DNA of 64,000 nucleotides. Source: a virus. Both the position numbers and the translations under genes were made by a program. The DNA is taken from positions 1 to 64,000 of the IMG/VR virus record IMGVR_UViG_3300017917_003388; one strand, written 5' to 3'. The notes beneath the pieces are model-generated. The model saw only the letters and a program-made list of their open reading frames with translations. It made no database searches and was not told the origin of the DNA. Below are positions 3,748-57,926 of the stretch, piece after piece (the first letter of the stretch is position 1; each line of letters starts with the position of its first letter).

Positions 3748-3795
3748 AACTGTTTGTTTTTTGTTTTAAGGGTTTTTTCTTAATTTCTTGATATT

Positions 3796-3829
3796 GTAAA
3801 TATAAGATTAAAGATTTTGAAATCCTAAT
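3796..3829 (-). promoter_or_regulatory. early promoter repeat copy
   Basis: Same motif. Confidence 0.75.
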
Positions 3830-3837
3830 CCCTGAAT

Positions 3838-5418: not shown

Positions 5419-5844
5419 TTACTTGATTGGATGAATGTAAAAATAAATATGTGTTGGATATTCATCAGTTTCAAACACATACAATAATGTAGGACATAAC
5501 CACATCATATGATCATCTTCAACACACAAATAATACCCACCACTGTTAACAGGAGGGTGGTTATATCTAATTAGTGTTTCAGCATCGTAACCAATTCCGC
5601 AGTTTACTAAATTTTTACAATTTTCAAATTCACTATTCGAAACTGTAACAGTAACACGGTCATTTCCATATGAGTATTTCTCTAAAAATGTATCAGCACC
5701 TGCTACCATTAATAGATTTCCTTTAAAACCAAACCCACCTTCTAAAAAATCGGGTAGATCAACATACCACAATCCATTTTCTTTAACAAAATCAATTGTT
5801 TTGTGAATAGGTTTTTGGGTAACCTCAATTTGTGTATTTTCCAT
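5419..5844 (-). CDS. conserved phage hypothetical protein
   Basis: WYVDLP...LLMVAGADTFL...WLCP motifs. Confidence 0.75.
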   Translation of the reverse strand: MENTQIEVTQKPIHKTIDFVKENGLWYVDLPDFLEGGFGFKGNLLMVAGADTFLEKYSYGNDRVTVTVSNSEFENCKNLVNCGIGYDAETLIRYNHPPVNSGGYYLCVEDDHMMWLCPTLLYVFETDEYPTHIYFYIHPIK

Positions 5845-5861
5845 TGTTTTTTTTTATTATT

Positions 5862-5895
5862 GTAAATATAAAATTTAAGATTTTGAAATCCTAAT
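5862..5895 (-). promoter_or_regulatory. early promoter repeat copy
   Basis: Identical to 6564-6597. Confidence 0.8.
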
Positions 5896-5897
5896 TC

Positions 5898-6533: not shown

Positions 6534-6563
6534 AACTGTTTGTTGTTTGTTTGTTTGTTTATT

Positions 6564-6597
6564 GTAAATATAAAATTTAAGATTTTGAAATCCTAAT
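6564..6597 (-). promoter_or_regulatory. early promoter repeat copy
   Basis: Same motif. Confidence 0.8.
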
Positions 6598-6599
6598 TC

Positions 6600-7229: not shown

Positions 7230-8162
7230 AATTGTAATTTATTTGGGGTTTTAGATTATTCTGTTGAGTTATTATGTTTATGTTTATTTCTAGAGTATTT
7301 CTTCCCACAAGGTTTAAATTTTTGAATCATTTTGCGTCTTATAATTTGAGCAACATGACGTTCATTTAATCCATTTATGGTTTTTTTATCTTTCATGGTT
7401 ATTAAATCCAAGTTTTTACTTTATATGCTTCATAATCATATAGATTAGGACCATAGTGTGATAAACCTTCTGTAACTCCATATTTTATTACAGTGTTATT
7501 TTTAAGATTTCTACTTTCCCAAGTCCAATAACCTTTATTATCTCGAACAGGTAATGTGATTACTTCACACTTAATTCCGATATTGTATTCAAATTCGTAA
7601 TGTATATCACCTACTTTAATATTTTCGACAATTACATTACCTTTAGTTAGTGTTGCCATAAATTGATTTACATTTCATTTATAACTCTTAACTCTCCAGC
7701 ATTTGCATATCTACCGTTAGATAGTCTAAAACGTATTGGTTTACAACCATATCCTGTTAGTATTCCACCTTGTTTAACAGGATATTTTTTTGATTTTTTC
7801 TTACCAACTACTGTTACAATTGTACCAATCATATCTTTTTTATGTTCATGAGAGGTACATTTGAATACATATGATTCTCCTATTTTTACATCTGTCTGTT
7901 TCATGTTATTCTCCTTGTAAATATTCTTCTAACGCATCTCTATAATCATAGAGTTCATCATATGCTTGTTCACTTAATAATTGAGAACATAATATATTTT
8001 CAATTGTTTCAAAAATATATTTAAGAGCTGAAAAATTTGATTTTTCAAATGGTTCACCAGCAAATGAATCTCTAAATTGTTCCGAAACTGCTGAACCATG
8101 AATTGAAGTAATATAACCTTCAATTAAATTTTCTACTGATAACATTTTATTTTTTCTTTATT

Positions 8163-8196
8163 GTAAATATAAGATTAAAAATCTTAAAATCCTAAT
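8163..8196 (-). promoter_or_regulatory. early promoter repeat copy
   Basis: Same motif. Confidence 0.7.
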
Positions 8197-8197
8197 T

Positions 8198-13300: not shown

Positions 13301-13545
13301 TATTTAGATATAATATATTGATGTGAAATAGTATTATATCCATTTTTTATAGGACATTGATTTGGAAATTTACCATCTCTACTATTATCATGTGTAATAA
13401 TCATATTTTCATAAGCACCTTTATCTTTCCAATAAGGATGATTACATTGCATTCCATCTGTTGATGTTCCAAAAAACGGACAACTATTATAACATTGGGA
13501 TATTACTTCTGAAACAGATATTTCCATCTTTATTTTTTAAGTTAT

Positions 13546-13579
13546 TCAAATATAGGATTAAAGATCTTGAAATCCTAAT
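13546..13579 (-). promoter_or_regulatory. early promoter repeat copy
   Basis: Same motif. Confidence 0.7.
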
Positions 13580-16500
13580 TTTTAAGTTTTAAACAATTAC
13601 TTATTTCAGTTTCATATTTGGTAATTTTTTCTTTATTTTTAATAAAAGTTTCACTATCTTCTTTTAATTCAGAATTTTGTTTAGTAATATATTCAATAGA
13701 ATTATTAATAGATCTTATTTGAAGATCAATAAATTTATGCATTGTATATTCTAAATCTTCTAAAACTCCATAAGTTAATTGTTTTTGTAATCTTTCAATT
13801 TCCTTTTTAATATTTTCATCTCTTTGAATTCTCATATTGGATTCGAGAATATCAAAATTAGATTGATATATTTTATAAAATAATAAACATTGAGCTTTAT
13901 AATCTGTAGAACTCCATACTTTCTTAGAATAATTTAAACACTTATCAAATACTTCTTCAATATTATTTAAAGCATCTTCAAAAATATATAACTCATCTGG
14001 TTCTCCAGAATAATGAAGAGTTGCTTTAATTCCGTTTTCTTCAATAATTTTACCATCATTATCATATATACTCATATAAAATGATAAACTTTTTTCATCA
14101 GATAATAAATTATATTTACCAACTGAACATTGGGTTATTTTAATTTTCATATTTTTTCAAGTATTAATAATTTTTGTTTATTTAATTCTTCAATGAATAT
14201 TTCTTTACTATCTAATAAAGTTAAAAAACTATCTTCTTTATTATCTAGTGGAGCTTTAGAATCTAAACAAACATAATCTTTATAACCATAACCTAACTCA
14301 TGTTTTTCAACATATTTACTACAATCAAAACTAAACTCAAAATCAAATTCTCCTAGTTTCTCAATTGTACCCAATATGTTAAAATTATTTTCTGTATTAG
14401 AAAAATCTAGTTCTCTTTCCAAATCATCTTTTGATGATATATAATATAAATAACCTGATGAATAATTAAAATTATATGAATCTTCAGGAACTAATACTAC
14501 TGTAAGTTTATTTGTTAATTCTATCATTTGGTTAATTTTTCAAATATTTCATCATAATTTGTTTGTATATGTTCTAAAACAACATAATACATATTAAATT
14601 GTTCTATGTGCCACCTAACTTTACTACCATTTTCCCATAAAATTAAGTAAGTAAAATCTGTTATTTCAAGTATTTGAGCTTTATGTACACTTTTACCAAC
14701 TTGTGTCATAAAAATATATGTTTCACCAGCTTTTAATTTTATATCTTTCATTATTTAATATTATTTAAATCATAAGCATTAATTATAGAATTTGCTGGAA
14801 CCCAAATAGTTTTATTTCTTATACCTTCTTCAAATTCACGGTAATAATAACTTCCCGAATCAGAATGTATTTCCACTTTTTTACTAGCTGCTTTTAATGC
14901 AGCTTGTACATGAAGTTTAGCAAATTCAACCATTAAATCTTTTATATCTTCTAGCTCTGTTGGAATAGAACTAAATCTTTGTTCTATAAATTCTTCTGCT
15001 GTTATATTATTTTCCATAATGATTGTTTATAAATTCTTCAAATAGTTCTTGGGTTGTAAATAATTCACCTTCATATATTTTAAATTCAGTTGACCATTTC
15101 TTTTCAACATTAGAATAAAAATATCTATTTTGCGACCATTCAGCAAACTTAATAGCTACATCAGTAGTTATTTCTGCACAAGTTTTAGCATTTGCAAAAA
15201 GACAGCCTTCAGTAATAAATCTATTTTCAAGTTTATTCATTTTCTTTTTAATAAGTTTATAATTCTATCTTTATTTCCGTTTATATATTCATTATATGCA
15301 TCAGAATACAATTGAGATGCTAGTTTAAAACCGTCATAAGAGTCTCTGAAAATAGGGTCTTCTTTTACTTTTAATAACATTCTATCTTGAAATTTAGATA
15401 ATTCTTCTAGTAATCTAATTTCATTTTCTAATAAATGAACAGCAACTTTAGAAACTATTTCTTCTGCTTCTTCTTTATCAAATTTTGAAGATAATTCAAA
15501 AAAAAGTTCTTCATTACTCATTTTCTAATTGTTTTAGTTGTTGTTGAAGTTCTTCAAAAATATCAGTCCATCTTTCAGAAGATGTTCTTTTTAAAATATC
15601 CATTTGAGCTTGAATTATTTTAGCTTGAACATATTTAGAATTTGCTCCTGCTATGAAATCACTATAAGCATCATAAATTTCGGCCTTAAAAGGTTGTTCT
15701 AAATCTTTTCCAAATAAGTTTTTAACATATTCTTCTGCTTCTTTGTTTAAGTCCATAATTAATCAATTTTAGGTAAATAATAAGCAACAATAGAATTATT
15801 ATTATATGCCCATCCTGTACCATTAAAAGTTTCTAAATGTTTTTTACCATCTTTACGAACTATTAAATATCTTCCATATTCAATATTTTTCTTCTGTTCA
15901 ACATCTCCAGTATATTTTACTGGTGTTAATATTGGTAAATCCATAATTTTATTCTTTTAATTTATAAACATTTTCAATCTTTTCATACTCAGGGCATTTT
16001 ACACCTTTTTGTAATTCGTTTAGACTAAATGTTATAGCTATTAAAACTATCATAGTCATTAAAAATAATAAGATTTCGATACTACTACTAGTCCTTTTAT
16101 CATCATCTTTTTCTTTTGATATTCTAGAACCTGCTAAAAACATATATAACAGAGTTATAAAACTAAACATAATTATTTGTGTTGTTGTCATAATTTTATT
16201 GTTTAGGTTGGATGATTACTCCATTTTTAAAATGACTATGTAAAACTTCACCATCATCATCATAAAAAGTACCAGTGTTTTCACCTATTATTTTCCAACT
16301 TTCTTCAACAGGTAGTATTGTTGCTGAGGATAGAATTTCTTTGTAAGTCTTCCAAATTGAATATTTTGGATGCAGTTCAGTGATAATTCCAAAACTTTCA
16401 ATATCAGCTATCTTAGCTTCAATTTCTTGTTTACCCTCTTGGGTAAGGTATATTCCTTTCATCCTAATTGTTTTATTTTGTAAAATTTTCCCTTATGTTT

Positions 16501-18820: not shown

Positions 18821-19055
18821 ATTTTATTAATTATATTATATATATTTATATTCCATCAATGGTTGTTATAATTTTAAATTTATCTTTTGATGATTTATCT
18901 AAATTAAAATCTTTTTGAAGATCTTTTTGAAATTGACCTCGTTTTATATAATTAACCAATTCTTTAAATTCAGGATCAGAAAATATTTTTTTATCTCCTT
19001 TAAAAGTAATATTAATAGATACCGATTTTGTTTCCATATTTAATTTTTTTTCACT

Positions 19056-19089
19056 ATAAGTATAAGATTAAAGATTTTGAAATCCTAAT
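19056..19089 (-). promoter_or_regulatory. early promoter repeat copy
   Basis: Same motif. Confidence 0.7.
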
Positions 19090-19363
19090 CTCTACCATTT
19101 ATCCAAATTAATTGTTTTAGGTTTAATTAATTCTCTCCTAGTTTCAGGTTTTATTAGAGGATTTCTATATGTATCTGTTTTATATATTATTATATGTTTA
19201 CGTCTCCATCCATTTTTATGTTGAATTCGTTTAGCGTATTTAGGAGTACTAAAGTCAGGATTACATGATAATAATATTATCATAATCCATATAATTATAT
19301 GTTTCATAGGAATCGATATGTGTTTTAAAAAAAATTAAACACAACTATTCCTATGTATAAATA

Positions 19364-22993: not shown

Positions 22994-24427
22994 TTAAGAT
23001 AAAGATGCGGACTTCCATGTAGACCCATTATACACATATATTAGGTTATTTCGGAAAAACATAGATCCTTCTATTGGACTAGATGAAGATTGTAGAGGTA
23101 GTACAAATAAACCACCACTTATAATTAATGAACCAGTTATGTTTATTAGTGAACCTGATGTTTGGATGAGATTTGATTTATTTACATCACTACTTCCATT
23201 TCCTACTATAAATGAATGTGAAACCGAACTTGTTATATTATATGAACCTATTACAAATTGTCCTAAACCTTCTGCTATAGTTCCTTCTCCAGCAGCAAAT
23301 GAATAATCACCATTAGTTATGGAAGCATTCCCTTGAGCATGGGAAAAATTTCCATTAGCTGTAGTTGCTTGTCCTTCAGAATGTGATCCTGAACCTTGAG
23401 CAGTAGTACTTTGTCCTTCGGCATGTGAAAATTCTCCATTAGTAATATTTCCTTGCCCCTCAGCATGTGAACTATCTCCATTAGTTTCATTACTGGTACC
23501 TTCAGCATGTGAATAAACTCCATTAGTGATATTATTTCTTCCTTCAACATGTGATCCTTCTCCGTTGGATGTACTATTATATCCTTCAGCATGTGAATAT
23601 GAGCCTGATGTGTTAGTTTGGTAACCCTCAGTATGTGAATAATCTCCATCAGCTCGACTATTATCACCTTCGGCATGAGATCCTTCTCCATATGATATTG
23701 AATTTGCCCCTTCAACATGTGAATATAAACCTATTGATTGATTACTTATTCCTTCAGCATGAGAACCATTACCTAATGATAAATTATTTTGTCCTTCAAC
23801 ATGTGAATGTGAACCTGATGATATATTTGAATATCCTTCAGCATGAGAACCATTACCTGATGATATGTTACTATCACCTTCAGCATGACTATTAGCACCT
23901 AATGATATAGTTTCAGATCCTTCAGCATGGGAGTATGAACCTGAAGATATACTAAGATATCCTTCAGCATGAGACCACTGTCCGCTAGATGTAGTATAAC
24001 GACCTTCGGCATGTGACCAATTACCTATGGTTAGTGTAAAATGTCCTTCAGCATGAGAATCTGAACCTGAAGCTATAGTATGGTTTCCTTCAGTATGTGA
24101 ACCAGTATTATAAGCTATAGTACTAGCTCCCTCAGCATGGGAATAAGGACCCAATGCTTGGTTACCAGCTCCTTCAACGTGAGAATATGAACCTATAGAT
24201 TTATTATTTATTCCTTCAGCATGTGAATGTAAACCAGTTGCTTGGTTGTTTGATACACCATTTGTTAATGAACCTGTTATATTTAAAGAACCACTGATGT
24301 ATATATCATAATCCTGAATACCAGTGAATGCATCTACTGATTGAGAAACATGCCATGACTCAATTATGAATGTTTGAGATATTTGATCTGAACCTGTTGC
24401 AAATGTTTGTTTTAATTTTTTTGCCAT
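22994..24427 (-). CDS. fibre/adhesin-like protein with YadA-head-like SHAEG repeats
   Basis: About 23 tandem 14-aa G-x-x-SH[AVT]EG repeats flanked by ISGSL/ITGSL motifs. Confidence 0.85.
   Translation of the reverse strand: MAKKLKQTFATGSDQISQTFIIESWHVSQSVDAFTGIQDYDIYISGSLNITGSLTNGVSNNQATGLHSHAEGINNKSIGSYSHVEGAGNQALGPYSHAEGASTIAYNTGSHTEGNHTIASGSDSHAEGHFTLTIGNWSHAEGRYTTSSGQWSHAEGYLSISSGSYSHAEGSETISLGANSHAEGDSNISSGNGSHAEGYSNISSGSHSHVEGQNNLSLGNGSHAEGISNQSIGLYSHVEGANSISYGEGSHAEGDNSRADGDYSHTEGYQTNTSGSYSHAEGYNSTSNGEGSHVEGRNNITNGVYSHAEGTSNETNGDSSHAEGQGNITNGEFSHAEGQSTTAQGSGSHSEGQATTANGNFSHAQGNASITNGDYSFAAGEGTIAEGLGQFVIGSYNITSSVSHSFIVGNGSSDVNKSNLIQTSGSLINITGSLIISGGLFVLPLQSSSSPIEGSMFFRNNLIYVYNGSTWKSASLS
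23290..24235. repeat. 42-bp coding tandem repeat
   Basis: Recurrent ccttcagcatg at 42-nt period. Confidence 0.9.
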
Positions 24428-28378: not shown

Positions 28379-28675
28379 CTATGAATATTAATCCTTCTTT
28401 ATCTGTGTTTTCTACTAATATATTAGTTCCAAAGTAATATATTGGACCTAAATATTCTTTAATTATATATTTATCTTCTTCTAAATATGATATCCGTCTA
28501 GGTCTATTACATGATCTAAATTCTCTTGGAGTTAATCTACACCATGTATCACCCAATTGTACTTCACAATTATTAGTTGTATCAAAATCATATTTTAATT
28601 TTTCCAAACCACCTGTTTTTTCAGACATAAACATTTATTTAGAATTATATTTTTTTGTTAAAAAGCTTTTACATT

Positions 28676-28755
28676 TTTCAACAAAATTTATATTTTTATT
28701 CATATAATTTATTAATTATTAATTAATTAGAGAGTATTACGTCTAAGTATACGTT
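28676..28755 (+). repeat. direct repeat (other copy 52826-52898), attC right-arm-like, ending at GTT
   Basis: Identical apart from a 7-nt indel; identity stops right after TATACGTT. Confidence 0.9.
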
Positions 28756-29086
28756 AACAGTAATATTATTTTTGTTTTGATTTTAATTCATTATAATAAT
28801 ACCTTTCAGCTTCTTCTTTTGTAAATGGTGGTAGTTTTTCTGCTTCCTTTATACTATCATAATCTGATTTTTCAAAAAAGCAACCGATTATATAAATTGC
28901 TATAATTATTAATATTGCTTCCATAGTTATTTTTTTAATAAGGTAAAACAATCAATCCATTGAGCAATTTCCCAACCGCTTTCGCTGTATTCGGGACATC
29001 TAACTAAATACCAAGTTTCTTCCTTTGGTTCTTTTTCTGTTGTTTTTACAAGTTTCATTTTACTTTGATTTGTGAGAAAGACCAGC

Positions 29087-29180
29087 GGCTAACAGCGGTT
29101 TTGCAATAGCCGCCTGACAGTTCTTGGTTAATAATTAAGTTCTTCTTTAGCGGCCATCGCAAAGCCGCAAAACGTTAGGC
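29087..29180 (+). repeat. attC-like site
   Basis: GGCTAAC-A-GCGGTTTTGCAATAGCCGC...GCGGCCATCGCAAAGCCGC-AAAAC-GTTAGGC. Confidence 0.8.
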
Positions 29181-29384
29181 ACAATTGTTAGTGACCACCT
29201 TTATATTTAAGTCTGAAAGAATTGCTGAAACTTCTTCTTTCATATCTTCATTAACATTTGACCAACAAGTATCTCTTTGACCATCCCATTTAGCGTGAGA
29301 TAAAGCACCATTACTAAACGCTTTTTCAAGCAATTCTTTCAGTTCATCGGTTGAAAGAATAAAACCGTTATCAAATTTTGTCAT
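29175..29384 (-). CDS. cassette-borne hypothetical protein
   Basis: Stop TAA lies in the core site; frame stays open into the next attC. Confidence 0.7.
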   Translation of the reverse strand: MTKFDNGFILSTDELKELLEKAFSNGALSHAKWDGQRDTCWSNVNEDMKEEVSAILSDLNIKVVTNNCA

Positions 29385-29399
29385 AATTAAAACAACTGT

Positions 29400-29494
29400 G
29401 CCTAACAGCGTATATGCAAGATACGCCACGAAGCGGTTTGTAAATATTTAAGTTTATTCTTTGGCGACCATCGCAAAGCCGCAGAACGTTAGCA
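29400..29494 (+). repeat. attC-like site (hybrid arms)
   Basis: GCCTAAC...GCCGCAGAAC-GTTAGCA. Confidence 0.75.
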
Positions 29495-29500
29495 TCAATA

Positions 29501-29917
29501 CTACGGAAGTAGTTCGATTACTTTTATTTGGTTAGGGTAAAACGCAACAACATTTTCATCCATTACCACACCATCATAACCGTTTTGTATTAATTTATTT
29601 TTTAATTTTAAGTCAATGTAGTTATAAGAGTAATCATAACCTTCATCATCTTTAATAGTATCACCTACGGCATTTCTAAATTTACCATCATCAGTGTCAG
29701 ATAAATCATATGGATTTTTTAAATTAAACTTAATTTTAAAAACATTCTCGCCATAAGTATTTGCAAAATTATAGTCCTTTGTACCATAAAAAACAGTATC
29801 TTCATCAAACAAAATTTCATCGTTGTTTGTGCCGTGTAGATAAACATCATTTACCACCTTATTTTTATTAAAATATTCTCTGATTGTAGTTGTTATGAAT
29901 TTCTTCAAATCTTTCAT
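29501..29917 (-). CDS. ADP-ribosyltransferase-fold-like protein with N-terminal leader
   Basis: YLHGT, FYGT...FANTYG, NLKNPY, GYDGV, VAFYPNQIK. Confidence 0.6.
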   Translation of the reverse strand: MKDLKKFITTTIREYFNKNKVVNDVYLHGTNNDEILFDEDTVFYGTKDYNFANTYGENVFKIKFNLKNPYDLSDTDDGKFRNAVGDTIKDDEGYDYSYNYIDLKLKNKLIQNGYDGVVMDENVVAFYPNQIKVIELLP

Positions 29918-30746
29918 CTTTTCTTTTATTTTATTTTATTTTAATTTTAGTTTTTCAAATTAAGTTCTCTGTGGTTAAATTGTTAACAAACACAAATACT
30001 TTTTCGTTAGATTCAATATCTTTTATTACCACAGCGTAATGGAGTTCCATCACTATTAAGTATTAATATAGTTCCTCTTCTATGATCTAATGTTTTATAA
30101 ATAAATCCATTTTCGCAACTAATTGAATAATCCCAATGAGATCCAACTTCATATGGATCTCGTTTGCTATCACAATATTGAAGTAAAATCATTATTCCAA
30201 AAGTTAATAAACCAAATAATAATAAATTTTTCATATAAACATTTGTTCTAATTTCATTTGAGTAAATCTTTCCATAGTATGGAATATTTCTTGTCTATCT
30301 AATATTTTAGCTTGTGATATATCATCTGAAAATTGGGCGTATCCTTGTTTAAGACCTGTATAAACATATTCATCTTTATTAAGAATAATATATTTAGGTT
30401 CTTCTTTCTCCCAAGTTAATAATTTTTTTCTTTTGGGTTTTTTCATTATTTTACTCTCCAATTTTCTTCATAATCTGGATAAGTAGGCCATACATATTTT
30501 TCTATACTTACCCAAAATCTTTCATGCCATACTTCTTTTTTTACTCCTTCTATTATGGCTTTATCATCAGTTATACCTTGTTCTAAGTTTAAAATAGATA
30601 ATTGTAATATACCCAATTCTAAAGTTTGAGATAATTCATCGATATTTGTAGTTTCAGGGTTAAAATTATCAATGATCTGTTTTGCTTTACTCCAAAGTTT
30701 TGTTAATTGTCCTTTTTGCTTCTTCATACTCATAACTTATTTTAAT

Positions 30747-52717: not shown

Positions 52718-52825
52718 ATGGTTTTTTAATTTTAATTTAAATATAAAATAAATAATTTTATAATCCCAATTATAGTAAAGAAGGAATATCTTGAAGATTA
52801 TTAGCTAATTTTACATAGATTTGTG

Positions 52826-52898
52826 TTTCAACAAAATTTATATTTTTATTCATATAATTTATTAATTAATTAGAGAGTATTACGTCTAAGTATACGTT
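52826..52898 (+). repeat. direct repeat copy of 28676-28755
   Basis: Ends at TATACGTT. Confidence 0.9.
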
Positions 52899-52906
52899 GT
52901 AGGCAA

Positions 52907-53134
52907 TTAGTTTGCTTTCTGTACTGCGTCTACCATTCCTTCAAGGCAATTATCACAGCAAGTCGGTTTAGCATCATCATTGCAATATTCGCAAACTAAC
53001 TGTTCGCTTCGCCCTACAACAGCGTGTTTACGCAATGCTTCTGCATACTCTTCTGCAAAATTCATAGCCATTTCTAATGTCCAATTCCTTGTTTCAACCA
53101 TTCGTGTTGATTTGTAATAATCTTTTGCTGTCAT
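52907..53134 (-). CDS. cassette ORF starting inside the attC loop; C-terminal CxxC..CC..C
   Basis: MTAKDYY...LRKHAVVGRSEQLVCEYC. Confidence 0.7.
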   Translation of the reverse strand: MTAKDYYKSTRMVETRNWTLEMAMNFAEEYAEALRKHAVVGRSEQLVCEYCNDDAKPTCCDNCLEGMVDAVQKAN

Positions 53135-53190
53135 TCTATTTAAGTTTTTAGTTGTTGAATCGCACTGCGTAAACACGCAAAACGTTAGCT
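53014..53190 (+). repeat. attC-like site with a long coding loop
   Basis: CTACAAC-A-GCGTGTTTACGCAATGC...GCACTGCGTAAACACGC-AAAAC-GTTAGCT. Confidence 0.8.
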
Positions 53191-53394
53191 TCAATTGTCT
53201 AACCACCGCACACCTTTACCATCAAAAACATAAAATTCCTCATCTGAATTTACGTTTTTAAATTTCATCCCCCAACCAACATTTGTTAAGTCTGCACCCA
53301 TGCAAATTGCTGTTGCTTGGTAATGCGGATGGTTTTTATCAATTATCATTGCTTTTTTACCATCGAATTTTGTGTCTTGATGTTTCTGCTCCAT
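53191..53394 (-). CDS. cassette-borne hypothetical protein
   Basis: Stop abuts the core site. Confidence 0.7.
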   Translation of the reverse strand: MEQKHQDTKFDGKKAMIIDKNHPHYQATAICMGADLTNVGWGMKFKNVNSDEEFYVFDGKGVRWLDN

Positions 53395-53435
53395 TTTATG
53401 TTTTTTATTAATTTAATCCAACGCAAGGAAACTAA

Positions 53436-53518
53436 AGCTAACAGCACCTACCAGCAATAGCTGCATAAAGCTATCGCACTACCAAAGCTACTGCAATGGT
53501 AGCTGCAAAACGTTATAT
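53436..53518 (+). repeat. attC-like site
   Basis: AGCTAAC-A-GCACCTACCA...TGGTAGCTGC-AAAAC-GTTATAT. Confidence 0.75.
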
Positions 53519-53533
53519 TTAATTTAAAAATTT

Positions 53534-53647
53534 TTATGGATAGTATTGTTTATACCCCATCCATAAAAATATTATTATCGAACCTACCAACACTATTGCG
53601 AGTATTACATCTATTATTTGTCTGAAACTACCTTTGTAATCATCCAT
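53534..53647 (-). CDS. cassette-borne single-TM peptide (37 aa)
   Basis: MDDYKGSFRQIIDVILAIVLVGSIIIFLWMGYKQYYP. Confidence 0.55.
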   Translation of the reverse strand: MDDYKGSFRQIIDVILAIVLVGSIIIFLWMGYKQYYP

Positions 53648-53850
53648 GTTATTTGTATAAAAATTTTTGATATTAAATATAACAAAGAATATATGTAATA
53701 AATTTTTGTTTTCCTAATCTTTAATTCCTAAATCTTTCTTTAATTTTTCAAAAGACGATTGATCTACATGATATTTACACAAATGTGGTTTCTTAGGAGG
53801 AAGATAATTAGGATCACCCTTACGAATTTGTGGTTGTTTTTTTTTTCATT

Positions 53851-57308: not shown

Positions 57309-57926
57309 ATGAGTTTAAAACATTTTCAATCAAAAATAGGTGTTCAAGCAGATGGAGATTTTGGTCCAGGAACATTTTTAGCCGCAATGAAATATTTAAA
57401 ACTTACTCCAATTAGAGCAGCTCATTTTTTTGGTCAAACATCACATGAAACTAATGAATTTTTAATATTTACTGAAAATTTAAATTATTCTGAATCCGGT
57501 TTGAAGACTACTTTTGGTAAATATTTCCCTGGTAACTTAGCATCACAATATGCTCGTCAACCTGAAAAAATTGCTAATAGAGTATATGCTAATAGAATGG
57601 GGAATGGAAATGAAAATTCGGGGGATGGATGGAAATTTAGAGGTAGAGGTGCTATTCAATTAACAGGTAGAGAAAATTATTTAGCATTTTCTAAATATAT
57701 AAATAAACCCGAAATAATGGTTAATCCAGATTTAGTATCTAATGAGTATGCTTTTGAATCAGCATTGTTTTTCTTTGATAAAAATAAATTATGGAATATA
57801 TGTGATGGTGGAATTGACAAAAACACAATATTAAAATTAACTCAAAGGATAAATGGAGGTACCAATGGTTTATCGGATCGTGAGTCTAAAACTATAAAAT
57901 ATTATAGATATTATACTTTAGGTTAG
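57309..57926 (+). CDS. GH19 endolysin with short peptidoglycan-binding N-terminus
   Basis: ADGDFGPGT, QTSHET, ENLNYS, FRGRGAIQLTGRENY, INGGTNG. Confidence 0.93.
   Translation: MSLKHFQSKIGVQADGDFGPGTFLAAMKYLKLTPIRAAHFFGQTSHETNEFLIFTENLNYSESGLKTTFGKYFPGNLASQYARQPEKIANRVYANRMGNGNENSGDGWKFRGRGAIQLTGRENYLAFSKYINKPEIMVNPDLVSNEYAFESALFFFDKNKLWNICDGGIDKNTILKLTQRINGGTNGLSDRESKTIKYYRYYTLG

Follow-up and report, generated by a model that had tools for sequence, protein, structure and literature searches.

The window analyzed here, that is, the whole stretch of DNA under study, comprises the first 64 kb of a complete phage genome of 174,694 bp with direct terminal repeats. The genome has ~27% G+C, and its minus strand holds nearly all genes; a glycoside hydrolase 19 gene at 57309–57926, likely encoding the endolysin, is among the few on the plus strand. 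The window also contains a 111-nt tRNA match on the minus strand (267–377), which leaves room for an insertion, and a 42-nt unit repeated in tandem in ~15 or more copies within a 477-aa open reading frame (ORF) (23373–24268). The phage probably infects Bacteroidota, as judged from a protein with a CHU_C domain and from the presence of one of its hairpin families in three Bacteroidota MAGs.

Between 28635 and 29989 lies a row of small gene cassettes, hereafter array 1, preceded by the remains of a recombinase gene. This stump (28635–28703, minus strand) consists of 22 codons and a stop and abuts the ATG of the next phage gene. An earlier sequence-only reading of 28676–29917, which described an attC-like cassette array, had overlooked it. 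The stump is identical in 20 of 21 residues to the N-terminus of P0019, an intact 264-aa relative, and it was the top match to an N-terminal recombinase profile among 9640 six-frame fragments (E = 6e-11). The stump junction is present too in the independent assembly L065. By these comparisons, what 28635–28703 preserves of an Xer/IntI-like recombinase of 264 aa is just its first 21 codons. Adjoining the stump is an attI-like docking site (28704–28755, plus strand) with the crossover within GTT 28753–28755, 50 nt from the recombinase ATG. It differs from the docking site of an intact platform (L073) at 4 positions in 80 nt, and with a loose pattern 117 of 127 recombinase loci proved to have a docking-like GTT no more than 80 nt from the ATG. 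Exact-match searches with the docking site found nothing in viral and metagenome contigs, and BLASTN against GenBank phages gave a single match, attributed to chance; its relatives were reached via the recombinase instead. A right-arm search with the hairpin retrieved 63 viral loci in which similarity ends at the GTT core, and three of these carry a tyrosine recombinase to the left of the array. Comparison with homologues of those recombinases allowed the 22-codon ORF to be recognized as a recombinase N-terminus.

Four cassettes lie on the plus strand, each with its gene on the minus strand. Cassette A (28753–28951) carries a 52-aa ORF (28766–28924) and is truncated, its closing core and attC having been deleted. 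BLASTN homology to at least seven other contigs begins at or just before GTT 28753, with different left neighbors, and ends at 28951, from where the other copies continue into a closing core and, in most, also a short attC. Cassette B is a remnant (28952–29173) missing the opening core and the 3′ end of its gene (ORF start at 29058); at its right end it matches a family of cassette ends that is widespread. The first unit of the array is accordingly a deletion fusion of cassettes A and B, with a break at 28951/28952 that cuts the cassette B gene. A single assembly covers this junction, whereas those at the stump and at the ART cassette were both confirmed in a second. Cassette C (29174–29487), with a 69-aa ORF (29175–29384) and a closing core at 29393–29406, is the only one with both cores, and it recurs in L255–L257 and L258 with other neighbors on either side. 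Cassette D (29488–29989) is truncated at its far end: its opening matches a common cassette-end family whose closing motif is missing here, which places the likely break near 29989. In total, three of the four cassettes have lost an end.

The 138-aa cargo of cassette D (29501–29917) had been called ART-fold-like, and Pfam agrees, assigning it to ART-PolyVal (PF18760) with 37.2 bits against a cut-off of 31.2. Searches of the cargo against PHROGs returned no named family. The protein starts (29850–29917) with a ~20-residue motif common to many unrelated proteins of related phages, possibly a capsid-loading tag; in L081, an ART-like gene bearing the same start adjoins the docking site of that contig. 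A candidate fifth cassette, with an opening-like stretch at 30006–30015 whose GTT lies seven nt from the stop of a 73-aa gene, was rejected, as seven homologues are ordinary phage genes with no cores.

Two attC-like sites on the minus strand belong to these cassettes. Hairpin 1 (29087–29180) is intact, and its bottom (minus) strand folds better than the other (z = −2.56 and −1.39 against shuffles, respectively). Copies 88–94% identical occur in many viral contigs and Bacteroidota MAGs, with homology ending at the GTT core. Site 2 (29400–29494) is chimeric: alignment with L255 and L258 revealed that its left arm is that of cassette C's own site and its right arm belongs to the hairpin 1 family. 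Only 7 of 12 arm positions form Watson–Crick pairs in site 2, compared with 10 in hairpin 1 and L255, and its folding is no better than that of shuffles (z = −1.25), because the arms come from two different site families. Such a hybrid would be expected of homologous recombination between two sites or of gene conversion. The sequence-only reading had described both sites as hairpins sharing an AAC-A-GC...GC-A(A/G)AAC-GTT architecture; the architecture holds at both (AAC 29091/GTT 29174 and AAC 29404/GTT 29488), and folding beyond shuffles holds for site 1 but not for site 2. It had also placed each ORF stop close to a plus-strand GTT, and we measured distances of 13, 1, and 13 nt. The complementarity of 13 of 14 bases between the unit ends was likewise found as described, but is close to what so AT-rich a genome gives by chance (8 pairs versus 1–6 in shuffles). 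Neither hairpin matched Rfam, and terminator calling was negative for both.

A second array lies 24.1 kb away, in agreement with the 24 kb given earlier. Here, a second recombinase remnant (52770–52853, minus strand) retains codons 1–9, joined in frame to the final 18, next to the attI-like docking site of the native platform (52854–52898, plus strand; GTT 52896). Array 2 itself (52896–53683, plus strand) comprises three cassettes, opening at GTT 52896, 53184, and 53512, with sites at 53018–53186 and 53440–53514, and is located between a clamp-like gene and polB. The first cassette gene has its start codon inside its own hairpin site (53018–53186), and genes of relatives often appear to be arranged likewise. 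A weight matrix trained on 227 sites, all from other contigs, identified four plus-strand sites in the whole genome, two per array, compared with 0–1 in shuffles; there was one further, non-folding hit and no third array. PF00589 had no match anywhere in the 174.7 kb, indicating that the genome encodes no intact tyrosine recombinase, and the two deleted gene remnants are all that was found of one.

Array 2 is syntenic with the intact platforms of L073, L074, and L160. L073, the contig encoding P0019, is a close relative, given its 86% DNA identity across 1.2 kb including the end of polB, and in the place of array 2, flanked by polB and the clamp-like gene, it carries an intact recombinase with a row of about 20 cassettes; L074 and L160 share this gene order. 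In L079, L084, L066, and L067, the recombinase gene is at or near the clamp gene, and across these seven contigs 2 to about 20 cassettes accompany an intact recombinase. The recombinase gene sits at other loci in L081, L085, and L255, so the platform does relocate.

The two arrays of our phage share their beginnings. Segments 28676–28755 and 52826–52898 are identical save for a 7-nt indel and diverge immediately past the GTT. Since both arrays start with the same docking site and recombinase 5′ end, one platform has evidently been copied or moved, and comparison of the two loci presents them as copies of one platform rather than independent capture sites, carrying two different deletions of one recombinase gene. 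The array 1 copy retains more of the recombinase 5′ end and a longer spacer, as in L073; it would therefore predate the array 2 deletion or have come from a sibling phage. An AAC/GTT site is absent at both outer junctions of array 1. We found no relative with an empty locus between the flanking 102-aa and 73-aa genes, and no syntenic relative of these genes, so the arrival route proposed below is an indirect reconstruction. Array 1 (28635–29989) is, very probably, a decayed and displaced second copy of a phage integron-like platform.

To characterize the system more widely, we assembled 227 sites of 43–181 nt from 61 recombinase loci; as the sequences are related, these counts do not represent independent events. 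Conserved elements of the sites are AAC-A, a T at position 9, an A at position 17, and C-GTT; positions 9 and 17 are possible counterparts of the two or three conserved extrahelical bases of attC. They conserve arm pairing more than sequence. The pairing is offset by 3–4 nt, giving a core–stem spacer of 1–2 by 5–6 nt, and the bottom (minus) strand is the more stable one in 89% of sites. In 220 of 224 cassettes, the longest ORF lies on the recombinase strand, such that the genes point towards the docking site.

Evidence that cassettes move came from targeted searches and closely related pairs. L066 and L067 encode recombinases that are 99% identical; L067 has two extra cassettes (762 bp) inserted precisely at the docking site. 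Conversely, a 392-bp cassette that lies between hairpins in L066 is absent from L067; the GTT junctions are clean in each case. When the individual units were compared by BLASTN, as the sequence-only reading had suggested, homology stopped at the GTT cores with differing neighbors for cassettes A and C and hairpin 1. Cassette C even adjoins a recombinase of another subfamily in L255. An all-against-all comparison of 230 cassettes yielded a single pair shared between distant phages, which implies a large cassette pool. The proposal that cassette capture is a recurrent route of gene acquisition is upheld in that cassettes are mobile and the route recurs across phages; its basis in two separate loci is not supported, as the two arrays begin with one and the same docking site and recombinase 5′ end.

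We next consider the recombinase. P0019 has the catalytic residues R-K-H-R-H-Y, and its structure model, a confident one (pLDDT 85), shows no extra helix at the position of the IntI insert. The I2/patch III insertion is lacking, with profile positions 178–210 corresponding to residues 181–260 of IntI4. P0019 scored 145 bits against TIGR02249, below the cut-off of 265, and missed all NCBIfam cut-offs. By sequence it is closest to archaeal XerA (4a8e), and by fold to IntI4 (2a3v), with Xer proteins scoring almost equally. Comparison among genomes demonstrates how the units are built, that crossover falls within GTT, that cassettes enter at the docking site, and that the arrays are co-located with the recombinase; that this enzyme catalyzes cassette exchange seems the natural explanation. 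Recombination probably proceeds through the folded bottom strand rather than by a double-strand route, a view we hold with some reserve.

Based on these observations, we propose the following model. In relatives, the platform consists of a 264-aa tyrosine recombinase gene just downstream of the docking site and the cassette row, each cassette running from a GTT core through an opposite-strand gene to a complementary AAC core and hairpin. The docking site is where units enter, whereas losses occur between hairpins, and the junctions fall at GTT; the recombinase would excise a circle at two hairpin sites and insert it at the docking site, probably via the folded bottom strand. Transcription of the cassette genes would belong to that of the phage's own operons and run from the far end towards the docking site, each hairpin standing upstream of its gene. 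Given the reversed orientation of the genes, they could not be served by a Pc-like promoter located at the docking site. A dispersed AT-rich repeat occurs upstream of minus-strand genes (578–631, 2199–2252, 3777–3830, 5843–5896, 6545–6598, 8144–8197, 13527–13580, 19037–19090, and 52718–52771) and is probably a phage promoter; its promoter-like placement has 7 matches against 0.27 expected, and a sigma-70 promoter scan did no better than chance. The far end of array 2 abuts a degenerate copy near 53700 (compare L073), and from this promoter-like repeat transcripts may run across the array in the direction of the recombinase. The array 1 copy would have reached its new locus by non-site-specific duplication or by recombination with a sibling phage, at a time when more of the recombinase 5′ end was present than the native locus has now. 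Later losses would have removed the recombinase, the site that separated cassette A from cassette B, and the far end of cassette D, while hairpin 2 became a hybrid, leaving what may now be mostly frozen cargo. The short ORFs created by both recombinase deletions end just before the next gene, and one may speculate that this preserves downstream expression.

The absence of substitutions between the two docking sites and their different first cassettes also fit continued use, against a displaced relic. Array 1 might, as the sequence-only reading implied, be a live, orphaned docking site that captured cassettes in place after the duplication, served in trans by a recombinase from the then-intact native copy, a co-infecting phage, or the host. 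The docking site is indeed intact and unchanged between the copies, the arrays share no cassette, and the presence of cassette C beside the other-subfamily recombinase of L255 is compatible with such service. Bacteroidota MAGs also encode longer homologues (E = 1e-62 and 5e-60), of 372 and 560 aa (L280:1213-2331 and L281:634-2316), the latter with a docking-like GTT ~60 nt upstream. However, the cassette adjacent to the docking site, expected to be the newest, is itself broken, as are three of the four cassettes overall, and we regard continued capture at array 1 as quite unlikely. That a piece of a host chromosomal array was acquired once and en bloc is favored by MAGs of Flavobacteriaceae, Chitinophagaceae, and Aureispira, in which the hairpin 1 family occurs, but genes in those three MAGs are forward, whereas they are reversed in 32 of 32 scorable viral loci; moreover, the stump clade was found on phage contigs and the cargo homologues are among phage-type genes. 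This reading is already largely refuted, and we give it very little credence. Least probable of all is that the hairpins are terminators, other RNA elements, or products of chance. Hairpin 2 folds no better than shuffles and the 13/14 complementarity is near chance, as such a reading would predict, but breakpoints fall at GTT across genomes, Rfam gave no match, and the hairpins were not called terminators. The junction data refute it as the primary role; a secondary RNA role is possible.

A different rival concerns the mechanism alone. The cores might recombine as double strands, either Xer-style or as extruded cruciforms with two strand exchanges, with no folded single strand involved. The absence of the I2 insert from the recombinase points in this direction, given that in IntI the extrahelical bases dock on this insert, which also prevents a second strand exchange (PMC7790495). 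Against it stand the site lengths of 43–181 nt, the retention of arm pairing over sequence, and the better bottom strand in 89% of sites, a folding preference that is a trait of attC (PMC5027507). The top fold match to IntI4 (2a3v) also counts against it, though the Xer proteins come nearly equal. On balance, we find the double-strand route unlikely but a serious competitor to the folded bottom strand.

How does the platform compare with known systems? With Xer and XerA it shares a compact two-domain tyrosine recombinase without insert. The dif-like sites of Xer/dif modules have a fixed length of about 28 bp and two binding boxes, whereas the sites here are variable hairpins (43–181 nt) in a polar array with a docking site. 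With classical integrons it shares a docking site by the recombinase start where new cassettes enter, complementary GTT/AAC cores with crossover at GTT, mobile units, and more stable bottom-strand hairpins (89% of 227; here hairpin 1, not hairpin 2). It differs in that the phage recombinase is ~47 residues shorter at the IntI insert (compared with the VchIntIA structure 2A3V), that the spacer is 1–2 by 5–6 nt rather than 5–6 in each arm (PMC5027507), and that the platform is resident in large phages. Furthermore, the genes are directed at the docking site and share the orientation of the recombinase, whereas classical ones lead away from attI and are expressed from Pc. On sequence grounds, the phage platform is integron-like in its working and lies outside the class by the IntI criterion. 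In integrons of the inverted-integrase (Treponema) type (PMC4889954), the integrase is likewise co-oriented with the cassette genes; there, a true IntI is turned relative to attC, whereas here the recombinase–site relation is classical and the genes are turned.

Array 1 fits the definition of a CALIN, with two attC-type sites and no integrase nearby or PF00589 match genome-wide. Phage CALINs have been published, including those of a Polaribacter phage and the Shewanella prophage M16-3 (Qi et al. 2023, PMC9892861; for CALINs also Cury et al. 2016, PMC4889954). They resemble our phage in having a cassette array without an integrase, and M16-3 has two arrays, each headed by an attI of its own; integrase loss and rearrangement are recognized CALIN origins (PMC8618304). 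The integrases named in that work, however, are bacterial IntI and the sites were found by classical attC models, whereas ours involve a phage-borne non-IntI enzyme deleted in both copies and reversed genes. Studies with IntegronFinder report few Bacteroidetes integrons and set aside insert-less recombinases (PMC4889954, PMC9024848), those near attC as not IntI (PMC4889954). We found no published description of this system in the openly accessible literature searched. A complete counterpart is present in the cultured Polaribacter phage Leef_1 (MT732473.1; L254:2700-5855), whose recombinase (QQV91403.1) is 37% identical and accompanied by a docking-like site and by a cassette row, also reversed, with at least five self-complementary units; a term search of its isolation paper (PMC8776804) found no mention of integrons.

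Finally, the cassettes offer a hint as to how they arise. Three families of paired cassette ends, or shells, hold unrelated genes (10 cassettes with 8 protein families, 25 with 22, and 13 with 12), seen in L265, L255, L066, L102, L105, L073, L215, L271, and others. The shell often provides the last residues and stop of the gene. Ordinary genes without cores exist for two of the cargoes: a homologue 83% identical to the ART gene in a 325-kb phage (L239:4001-4408), and a close homologue of the cassette C gene (L260:4001-4207). Shells may be a trace of cassette birth.

More broadly, we tentatively suggest, while thinking it somewhat less likely than not to hold in every part, that large Bacteroidota phages run their own integron-like system, with an I2-less recombinase, folded single-stranded sites shared with hosts, reverse polarity, and gene-swapped cassette ends. 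Cassette capture by integrons is considered to require the I2 helix (PMC7790495), and here comparative data show that cassettes are inserted and excised in an ordered way next to a recombinase without this helix. If this reading is true, these phages would provide a living stand-in for the pre-I2 integron ancestor together with a visible route of cassette birth. Two old questions, the origin of single-strand recombination and the making of cassettes, would become testable, with Leef_1 as a cultured model bearing a complete version of the platform. The relic locus described here stands as a record of platform copying, enzyme loss, and cargo fixation, and, if confirmed, site-specific gene shuffling would be a routine source of variation in large freshwater phages and overlooked by present definitions.
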